A DNA stretch of 64,000 nt from Escherichia phage UB. Where the stretch lies: the sequence record MH383160. One strand, written 5' to 3'. A model generated the notes under the pieces. That model had not been told where the DNA came from. It saw nothing but the letters and a program-made list of their open reading frames with translations, and did not search any database. This document shows, piece by piece, positions 17,912 to 18,002 of this stretch. Made by a program: the position numbers and the translations under genes. Positions within the stretch are counted from its first letter, which is position 1, and the number at the start of each line of letters is the position of its first letter.

Positions 17912-18002
17912 CGAAAGAGGTGGGATTTGAACCCACGAAGCGTTATTTCTAACACTTGCTCGCTTAGTAGGCGAGTGCAATCAACCGCTCTGCCACCCTT
18001 CC
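17912..18002 (-). tRNA. Class II tRNA with long variable arm; anticodon reads ACT by manual fold (Ser-type, unusual A34)
   Basis: Acceptor GGAAGGG/CTCTTTC with G-U pairs; anticodon stem CTCGC/GCGAG with loop CTACTAA; 22-nt variable arm; T-arm GTGGG-TTCAAAT-CCCAC. Confidence 0.55.

Follow-up and report, generated by a model that had tools for sequence, protein, structure and literature searches.

Escherichia phage UB (sequence record MH383160) carries, in the stretch of 64,000 nucleotides analysed here and referred to as the window, a small island of tRNA genes, one of which encodes a class II tRNA with the anticodon ACU. The adenosine at position 34 (A34) raised the question of whether this gene encodes a working serine tRNA, which codons it reads and why a phage should carry it. 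The initial annotation regarded A34 as rare and considered a specialised decoder reading AGU strictly, an inosine-modified tRNA, a suppressor-like species and a pseudo-tRNA.

The six tRNA genes listed in that annotation were exactly the six found by ARAGORN, all on the minus strand, and all of them exceeded the Rfam gathering score of 29 bits. The ACU gene was called as tRNA-Ser by ARAGORN at 17911..18002 (-) and matched by Rfam RF00005 over 17912-18002, which agreed with the direct reading of the sequence and gave a tRNA of 91-92 nt. The Rfam match covered the full model (1-71) with 49.9 bits and an E-value of 1e-8. The anticodon corresponds to positions 17968-17966, i.e., to AGT at 17966-17968 on the plus strand. 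Read directly, the 5' part of the tRNA is GGAAGGG-UG-GCAG-AGCGGUUGAU-UGC-A-CUCGC-CUACUAA-GCGAG, and the part following the anticodon arm consists of a variable stem, the T arm GUGGG-UUCAAAU-CCCAC, the acceptor strand CUCUUUC and G73. The anticodon arm CUCGC-CUACUAA-GCGAG was recovered in the Rfam alignment, and the class II fold with a 5-bp stem, the loop CUACUAA and the anticodon ACU was thus borne out by both programs.

The variable region of the tRNA-Ser is an insertion of about 20 nt folding into an 8-bp stem with a 4-nt loop, and this long stem-loop arm places the molecule among the class II serine tRNAs. Standard pairs were found at every position of the stems, with G-U at 2-71 and 6-67 of the acceptor. 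No 3' CCA is encoded in the gene, in which G73 is followed by CAA. The identity elements of the E. coli seryl-tRNA synthetase (SerRS) are G73, G1-C72, A3-U70 and C11-G24. All of them are present in the phage tRNA, with 2-71 being G-U and not G-C, and C11-G24 was invariant in 53/53 ACU relatives.

The G+C content of the window is about 33%, and the tRNA genes share the minus strand with 79 of the 80 ORFs that reach 100 aa or more. A consensus scan indicated a putative, near-consensus sigma-70-type promoter at 18013..18041 (-), composed of TGGACA, a 17-nt spacer and TG-TATAAT (11 of 12 hexamer matches and an extended -10 TG). About 10 nt separate its predicted end from the 5' end of tRNA-Ser downstream, and the promoter probably drives a cluster of Ser, Met(Ile2) and Asn tRNAs. 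The DNA upstream of tRNA-Ser is homologous in phage PBECO4, where it precedes a gene for tRNA-Ser(GCU). The second gene of the cluster (17829..17903 (-); Rfam 68.4 bits) starts 8 nt downstream of tRNA-Ser and encodes a tRNA with the anticodon CAU, called Met by ARAGORN. Across 5,426 E. coli genomes, it matched best to genes annotated by PGAP as tRNA-Ile with a CAU anticodon, and C4-G69, C5-G68 and G27-U43 are common to the phage tRNA and these genes. It is probably a tRNA-Ile2, a lysidine-modified decoder of AUA. The atypical T-loop AUCGUUC ascribed to this tRNA at the outset was also seen in the Rfam alignment, with A54 and U58 in place of the usual T54 and A58. The third tRNA of the module is tRNA-Asn(GUU) at 17664..17738 (-), called by ARAGORN and Rfam. 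A GC-rich hairpin followed by a T-run was noticed between the Asn and Met genes at 17775-17789, on the plus strand, though the minus strand encodes nearly all genes of this region; possibly the hairpin serves as a terminator, either bidirectional or antisense.

The remaining tRNAs of the island are tRNA-Thr(UGU) (16129..16202 (-); ARAGORN and Rfam), tRNA-Arg(UCU) (19998..20071 (-); ARAGORN and Rfam), which decodes AGA and hence serves the codon box shared with AGU, and tRNA-Gly(UCC) (21099..21171 (-); ARAGORN), whose Rfam score of 41.7 bits was the lowest of the six. The U-U mismatch pointed out earlier in the anticodon stem of tRNA-Gly is U30-U40, marked by Rfam as a non-standard pair; this tRNA also has G at position 37 and is identical in phages SP27, JP4 and PBECO4. 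On either side of it, apparent diverged tandem duplications of small genes were observed, with the segment pairs 20735-20927/21254-21446 and 21202-21375/21460-21633 showing about 70-73% mutual identity. Inside the island, adjoining tRNA-Arg(UCU), a homing-endonuclease ORF was identified at 19442..19966 (-) (Pfam NUMOD4, 2e-11; HNH_3, 1.3e-5). At this position SP27 and PBECO4 have tRNA-Ser(UGA) instead, and in JP4 the order is Ser-ACU, HNH, Ser-GCU. Because this place is taken by another tRNA or gene in the relatives, the island is, as judged from these alignments, a mosaic of exchangeable cassettes.

The whole region matches the Asteriusvirus jumbo coliphages PBECO4, 121Q, SP27, JP4, slurp01 and others with 90-99% identity. 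The 91-nt tRNA-Ser showed 100% identity in 17 phage records from 16 distinct phages, with flanks 90-98% identical, and its identical copies carry the plain label tRNA-Ser in GenBank. The JP4 copy was annotated without a pseudogene flag by authors who used tRNAscan-SE 2.0. In phages PBECO4, SD-15 and ELP-22, tRNA-Ser(GCU) occupies the slot where the others have ACU, between homologous flanks, and both genes are present in JP4, Turkey3, WPEC3, ph0011 and EJP2. Altogether, about 12 Asteriusvirus phages had ACU only, 17 GCU only and five both. The possibility that the ACU gene is a simple G34A point mutant of the sister GCU gene was rejected, as the alignment revealed extensive differences despite the shared slot. 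In EJP2 the acceptor, variable and T stems of the ACU gene differ and the anticodon arm is the same. Ser(ACU) was also found in another group of phages with genomes of about 350 kb, Salmonella phage Munch and Erwinia phage Hallingskeid, with the anticodon stem ACGGU/ACCGU in place of CUCGC/GCGAG. The loop CUACUAA was unchanged in EJP2, Munch and Hallingskeid, and the stems carried compensatory changes. This pattern of conservation indicates that A34 is maintained by selection.

To evaluate the structure more broadly, the cloverleaf and the variable-arm helix were imposed on an alignment of 53 diverse ACU tRNAs. Standard pairs occupied 94.0% of the cells, compared with 62.9% after shuffling and 39-52% when the partners were slid, and the covariation score was 0.821 versus 0.203 for shuffled data. 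Changes on both sides were seen at 22 of the 27 pairs. In the acceptor, anticodon and variable-arm helices every pair varied, with 89-100% of cells paired; in the variable-arm helix all six pairs changed on both sides and 89% of cells were paired. Because the search pattern itself prescribed the anticodon loop, the T loop and some of the D stem, invariance at these positions is uninformative. Compensatory change on this scale argues that the Ser(ACU) structure is under selection.

These data bear directly on the suggestion that the gene is a non-functional pseudo-tRNA or a tRNA-Ser(GCU) gene struck by a chance G-to-A mutation. Such a reading could draw on the absence of A34 from the standard bacterial serine tRNA set, on the unencoded CCA and on the two G-U pairs in the acceptor stem. 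However, the identity of the gene in 17 records, its intact stems, an Rfam score well over the threshold, the strong predicted promoter upstream and the retention of ACU in many divergent lineages with compensatory changes are all at odds with it, and the differences from the sister GCU gene are too extensive for a point mutant. The probability of a pseudogene or chance mutation appears close to negligible and, judged by its sequence, tRNA-Ser(ACU) is a genuine tRNA.

As to the codon that such a tRNA would serve, the initial annotation had proposed a comparison of codon usage between phage and host. An identical ORF procedure was applied to the window and to a 50-kb E. coli core region, with a prophage region left out. 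AGT, the top serine codon of the window, was used at 23.0 per 1000 codons versus 7.4 in the E. coli core (3.1x), whereas AGC was used at 3.3 versus 17.2 (0.2x). The codons matched exactly by other phage tRNAs were enriched too: ACA at 23.0 versus 6.6 (3.5x), AGA at 9.5 versus 1.8 (5.4x) and GGA at 11.8 versus 6.8 (1.7x). The six tRNAs may thus be viewed as a coherent set directed at A/U-rich codons. ATA was used at 14.7 versus 3.8 per 1000 (3.9x), which matches the reading of tRNA-CAU as tRNA-Ile2.

The probable explanation is that the gene encodes a functional phage serine tRNA which would read AGU through a full Watson-Crick match, with A34 unmodified, and supplement the host tRNAs. The decoding part of this proposal leans on engineered tRNAs in E. 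coli. Schmitt, Tittle and Fisk examined 15 A34 anticodons in an orthogonal tRNA having the loop CU-NNN-AA, as in the phage tRNA (PMC11066159). With the ACU anticodon, 9.4% reassignment of AGU was obtained in vivo; AGC and AGA were below detection and AGG reached 0.36% (PMC11066159). In an E. coli S30 extract, Cui et al. found that an ACU tRNA read AGU better than its GCU variant, and that native Ser(GCU) reads AGU via wobble (PMC6158751). Given these E. coli results with ACU in the same loop, albeit on an archaeal tRNA body, strict decoding of AGU with unmodified A34 would be the expected behaviour of the phage tRNA, and among the options raised at the outset the specialised AGU decoder is the one favoured by the evidence.

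Alternatively, A34 could be converted to inosine by the host TadA or by a phage enzyme, and the resulting ICU anticodon would read AGC besides AGU, and AGA weakly. Between the loop CUACUAA and the loop CUACGAA of the TadA substrate tRNA-Arg(ACG) there is a single difference, at position 36, and some foreign A34 tRNAs can be edited by E. coli TadA (PMC11066159). It is, however, precisely at this position that the U33-A34-C35-G36 sequence of the substrate is lost, with U36 in the phage tRNA-Ser. No inosine was detected in cDNA of the ACU orthogonal tRNA, signs of it being seen for three of 15 A34 anticodons, others than ACU, and the authors concluded that TadA is very specific for the anticodon and loop of tRNA-Arg2 (PMC11066159). 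The inosine option is therefore opposed by the absence of editing of ACU in an identical loop in vivo, and I34 would moreover misread AGA (Arg) as Ser.

A phage-encoded enzyme was suggested by the annotation of gp491 of Sharanji, a sister phage with the identical tRNA, as a tRNA-specific adenosine deaminase. Searches in Pfam, NCBIfam and PDB identified gp491 as a T4 Cd-like dCMP deaminase and not a TadA. It matched the T4 deoxycytidylate deaminase 1vq2 over the full length (E = 6e-35) and TadA structures in the zinc motif only (E about 1e-5), and in NCBIfam it scored 71 bits for ComEB versus 30 bits for TadA, for which the cut-off is 150. In view of the dCMP deaminase matches, the annotation, repeated in the Sharanji paper, is apparently wrong. 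No deaminase motif was found in the 64-kb window. Taken together, modification of A34 to inosine is considered very unlikely. Sharanji also encodes a CCA enzyme (NF008137, 274 bits, N-terminal 207 residues), which looks genuine by this match and fits a tRNA-Ser gene without an encoded CCA. In the 64-kb window neither a Sharanji-type deaminase gene nor a CCA enzyme gene was present.

The same experiments speak to a suppressor-like or recoding role, in which the tRNA would insert serine at AGA/AGG arginine codons by deliberate or tolerated misreading. Expanded wobble rules allow weak pairing of A34 with G and A, and the low reassignment of AGG by ACU could be taken in this sense. On the other side, AGG was about 26-fold below AGU and AGA was below detection (PMC11066159). 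A tRNA-Arg(UCU), which would compete against misreading, is encoded in this phage and at 23 of the 119 viral ACU loci listed. ACU is complementary to no stop codon and pairs with the sense codon AGU, and the tRNA has a standard 7-nt loop with U33 and A37. A suppressor-like function thus found no backing, and misreading of arginine codons as the purpose of the gene seems extremely improbable.

To establish how widely the anticodon occurs, viral contigs of IMG/VR were scanned with a class II tRNA pattern in which the loop CTACTAA was flanked by the D arm TGGCNGAG and the T loop GGTTCRAATCC. The A34 pattern matched at least 120 stretches representing at least 119 new loci, and every listed one was called tRNA-Ser(ACU) by ARAGORN. 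When any base was allowed at position 34, at least 120 stretches were again obtained; among the matches listed, 101 new loci (103 matches) had G34 and 19 loci were those already found with A34, and U or C at position 34 occurred in none of the IMG/VR matches listed for this pattern. In viral contigs, A34 thus accounted for about 16% of the AGY-type serine tRNAs fitting this one pattern (19/122, among the matches listed). Counted as 90%-identity clusters among the matches listed, there were about 15 ACU versus 56 GCU, assuming that the 19 loci listed again correspond to the first 19 obtained with the A34 pattern.

In prokaryotic genomes, one per species (185,579 species, 596 Gb), the A34 pattern matched 27 stretches. 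Many of these lay on short contigs of metagenome bins, nine belonged to Polynucleobacter and several to DPANN archaea or Patescibacteria. The E. coli Ser(GCU) gene presumably fits the G34 form of the pattern, and on this ground cellular G34 matches should number in the tens of thousands. The initial statement that A34 is rare therefore holds for cells and fails for viruses, in which roughly every sixth comparable serine tRNA listed has it. In Polynucleobacter, a Ser(ACU)-Gly(CCC)-Thr(CGU) mini-array was noticed in several copies, one of them adjoining a gene with a phage-type P63C domain. A 985-kb contig of a DPANN archaeon carried a Ser(GCU) and, 1 kb away, a paralogous Ser(ACU) with 84% identity, which indicates that a few cells do carry ACU. 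When the exact anticodon stem-loop of the phage tRNA was searched for in IMG/VR with any base at position 34, only 121Q and two tRNA-Arg(UCU) genes were retrieved. The latter, on two unrelated viral contigs (51-127 and 3422-3495), have GCACUCGC-CU-U-CUAA-GCGAGC and differ only at position 34, possibly by chance.

Among the matches listed, a Ser-GCU gene was found beside ACU in the fetched flanks of 1 of 119 ACU loci, and ACU beside GCU at 1 of 99 GCU loci. These near-exclusive occurrences, together with the use of the same slot in Asteriusvirus, mean that ACU replaces GCU and is not added to it. With position 34 masked, 200 unique sequences clustered at 90% identity fell into 67 clusters with ACU only and 59 with GCU only, none being mixed, whereas at 75-85% identity the ACU and GCU clusters merged. 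The purity of the 90% clusters indicates that the anticodon state is a property of lineages and not noise, and that ACU is not confined to a single narrow clade. Among the matches listed, the ACU viral loci were AT-rich, with a median G+C of 0.376; a G+C of at least 50% was found at 1/104 ACU loci versus 18/83 GCU loci (Fisher p = 2e-6). The median AGT share was 0.72 at ACU loci and 0.65 at GCU loci among the matches listed, a weak difference (p = 0.08).

Within Asteriusvirus, the ACU-only, GCU-only and both-carrying phages hardly differ in genome or codon usage, so codon demand alone leaves the choice between the two versions unexplained. The replacement might instead reflect escape from an anticodon nuclease, belonging to the defence of the host or of a competitor, that depends on G34 and cuts tRNA-Ser(GCU): an A34 tRNA would resist it and still serve AGU, an idea compatible with supplementation of the host. 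Changes in the anticodon loop are known to let phage tRNAs evade defences that target tRNAs (van den Berg et al. 2023, PMC10264068), and the anticodon loops of Ser, Thr, Met and Pro tRNAs are cut by HEPN nucleases such as ApeA. The alternation of ACU and GCU among near-identical phages, five of which have both, is more readily accounted for by an arms-race cassette than by codon usage. Nevertheless, no report of a nuclease targeting tRNA-Ser(GCU) at G34 was found in the literature on defence tRNases, and the bacterial Schlafen paper has no serine tRNA among the targets. The ACU and GCU loops differ at position 34 only, and the AT-rich bias of the ACU viruses is predicted by codon demand and not by nuclease escape. 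Escape from a nuclease is therefore judged unlikely.

Returning to supplementation of the host, the following course is envisaged for the phage tRNA. The host RNA polymerase would transcribe tRNA-Ser from the sigma-70-type promoter just upstream, and the transcript would be matured by 3' trimming and CCA addition, the latter being proposed since CCA is not encoded in the gene. Recognition by SerRS depends on the long variable arm, the acceptor stem and the discriminator G73, and the anticodon plays no part in it. Through these same elements the host enzyme would charge the phage tRNA with serine and, as it is blind to the anticodon, the change from G34 to A34 should be costless for charging. 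On the ribosome A34 would pair with U3 of AGU, leaving AGC unread and AGA/AGG barely read, and the tRNA would top up the host tRNA-Ser(GCU), for which G-U wobble is the only way of reading AGU.

The synthetases of the other NNY split boxes use position 34. Other split-box A34 tRNAs were seen in 2/133 cases in viral GCU loci versus 19/122 for Ser (p = 4e-5; among the matches listed), and their rarity in viral loci is consistent with the argument from SerRS. We infer that the blindness of SerRS to the anticodon explains why, of the split-box A34 anticodons, ACU alone is common in viruses. Asp-AUC, Asn-AUU, Tyr-AUA and Phe-AAA were observed at low frequency in viral arrays, and split-box A34 tRNAs were commoner in Ser(ACU) arrays (7/105) than in Ser(GCU) arrays (2/133), in both instances among the matches listed. 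A virus adding to a complete host set could, moreover, afford a specialist for one codon, whereas a cell needs a decoder of both AGU and AGC. On balance, we lean slightly towards regarding Ser(ACU) as a virus-hallmark isoacceptor and a natural decoder with unmodified A34 in a split box, which makes up about 1/5-1/6 of viral AGY-type serine tRNA lineages, occurs in phages of many hosts and in some giant-virus bins and is near-absent from cells, the likely reasons being the blindness of SerRS and the fact that the virus only tops up the host set.

Among known systems, the closest is tRNA-Ser(GCU), represented by E. coli serV and by Ser-GCU of PBECO4 and RaK2. It shares with the phage tRNA the class II fold with a long variable arm and the loop CU-N-CUAA, with U36-A37 and a difference at position 34 only; in sister phages it occupies the same genomic slot and is presumably charged alike by SerRS. 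Unlike it, the phage tRNA has A34 for G34, and should therefore read AGU by a Watson-Crick pair and probably leave AGC unread. Natural tRNAs with unmodified A34 include Mycoplasma tRNA-Thr AGU, yeast mitochondrial tRNA-Arg ACG and the Salmonella proL A34 mutant. Their A34 is gene-encoded, as in the phage tRNA, and stays adenosine. However, they serve four-codon boxes, in which loose reading is harmless, whereas the phage ACU operates in a box split with arginine, which makes specificity important. The engineered ACU tRNAs have the loop C32-U33-A34-C35-U36-A37-A38 found in the phage tRNA and work in E. coli translation with selectivity for AGU and no inosine (PMC11066159, PMC6158751). They are built, though, on the bodies of archaeal tRNA-Tyr or tRNA-Pyl and are charged by orthogonal synthetases, and the phage molecule is a natural serine tRNA. 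Like the tRNA sets of T4, T5 and jumbo phages, the one described here forms a small island interspersed with homing endonucleases and directed at host-rare A/U-rich codons, here ACA, AUA, AGA, GGA and AGU. The anticodons of the usual phage sets are also cellular, and in this respect ACU, essentially confined to viruses, differs.

The sequence itself is already deposited in GenBank as tRNA-Ser. In the literature on Ser-ACU or A34 in phages and on Asteriusvirus genomes, the ACU anticodon was undiscussed, though survey tables may list Ser-ACT, and the literature searched, which was incomplete, contained no description of a wide viral occurrence of Ser(ACU). As no such paper was found, this occurrence is apparently undescribed. 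Decoding by unmodified A34 has mostly been studied with engineered tRNAs because A34 is almost unused in cells outside the inosine families. If the interpretation given here is correct, the viral Ser(ACU) set would constitute natural material for the study of A34 decoding in a split codon box, and would offer natural scaffolds for reassignment of the AGU codon. Ser(ACU) could also be a possible marker of viral sequence in metagenomic bins. For viruses in general, it would be a clean case of a virus-specific addition to the anticodon repertoire and, for this phage, the tRNA would account for the efficient translation of its commonest serine codon, which the host reads by wobble.
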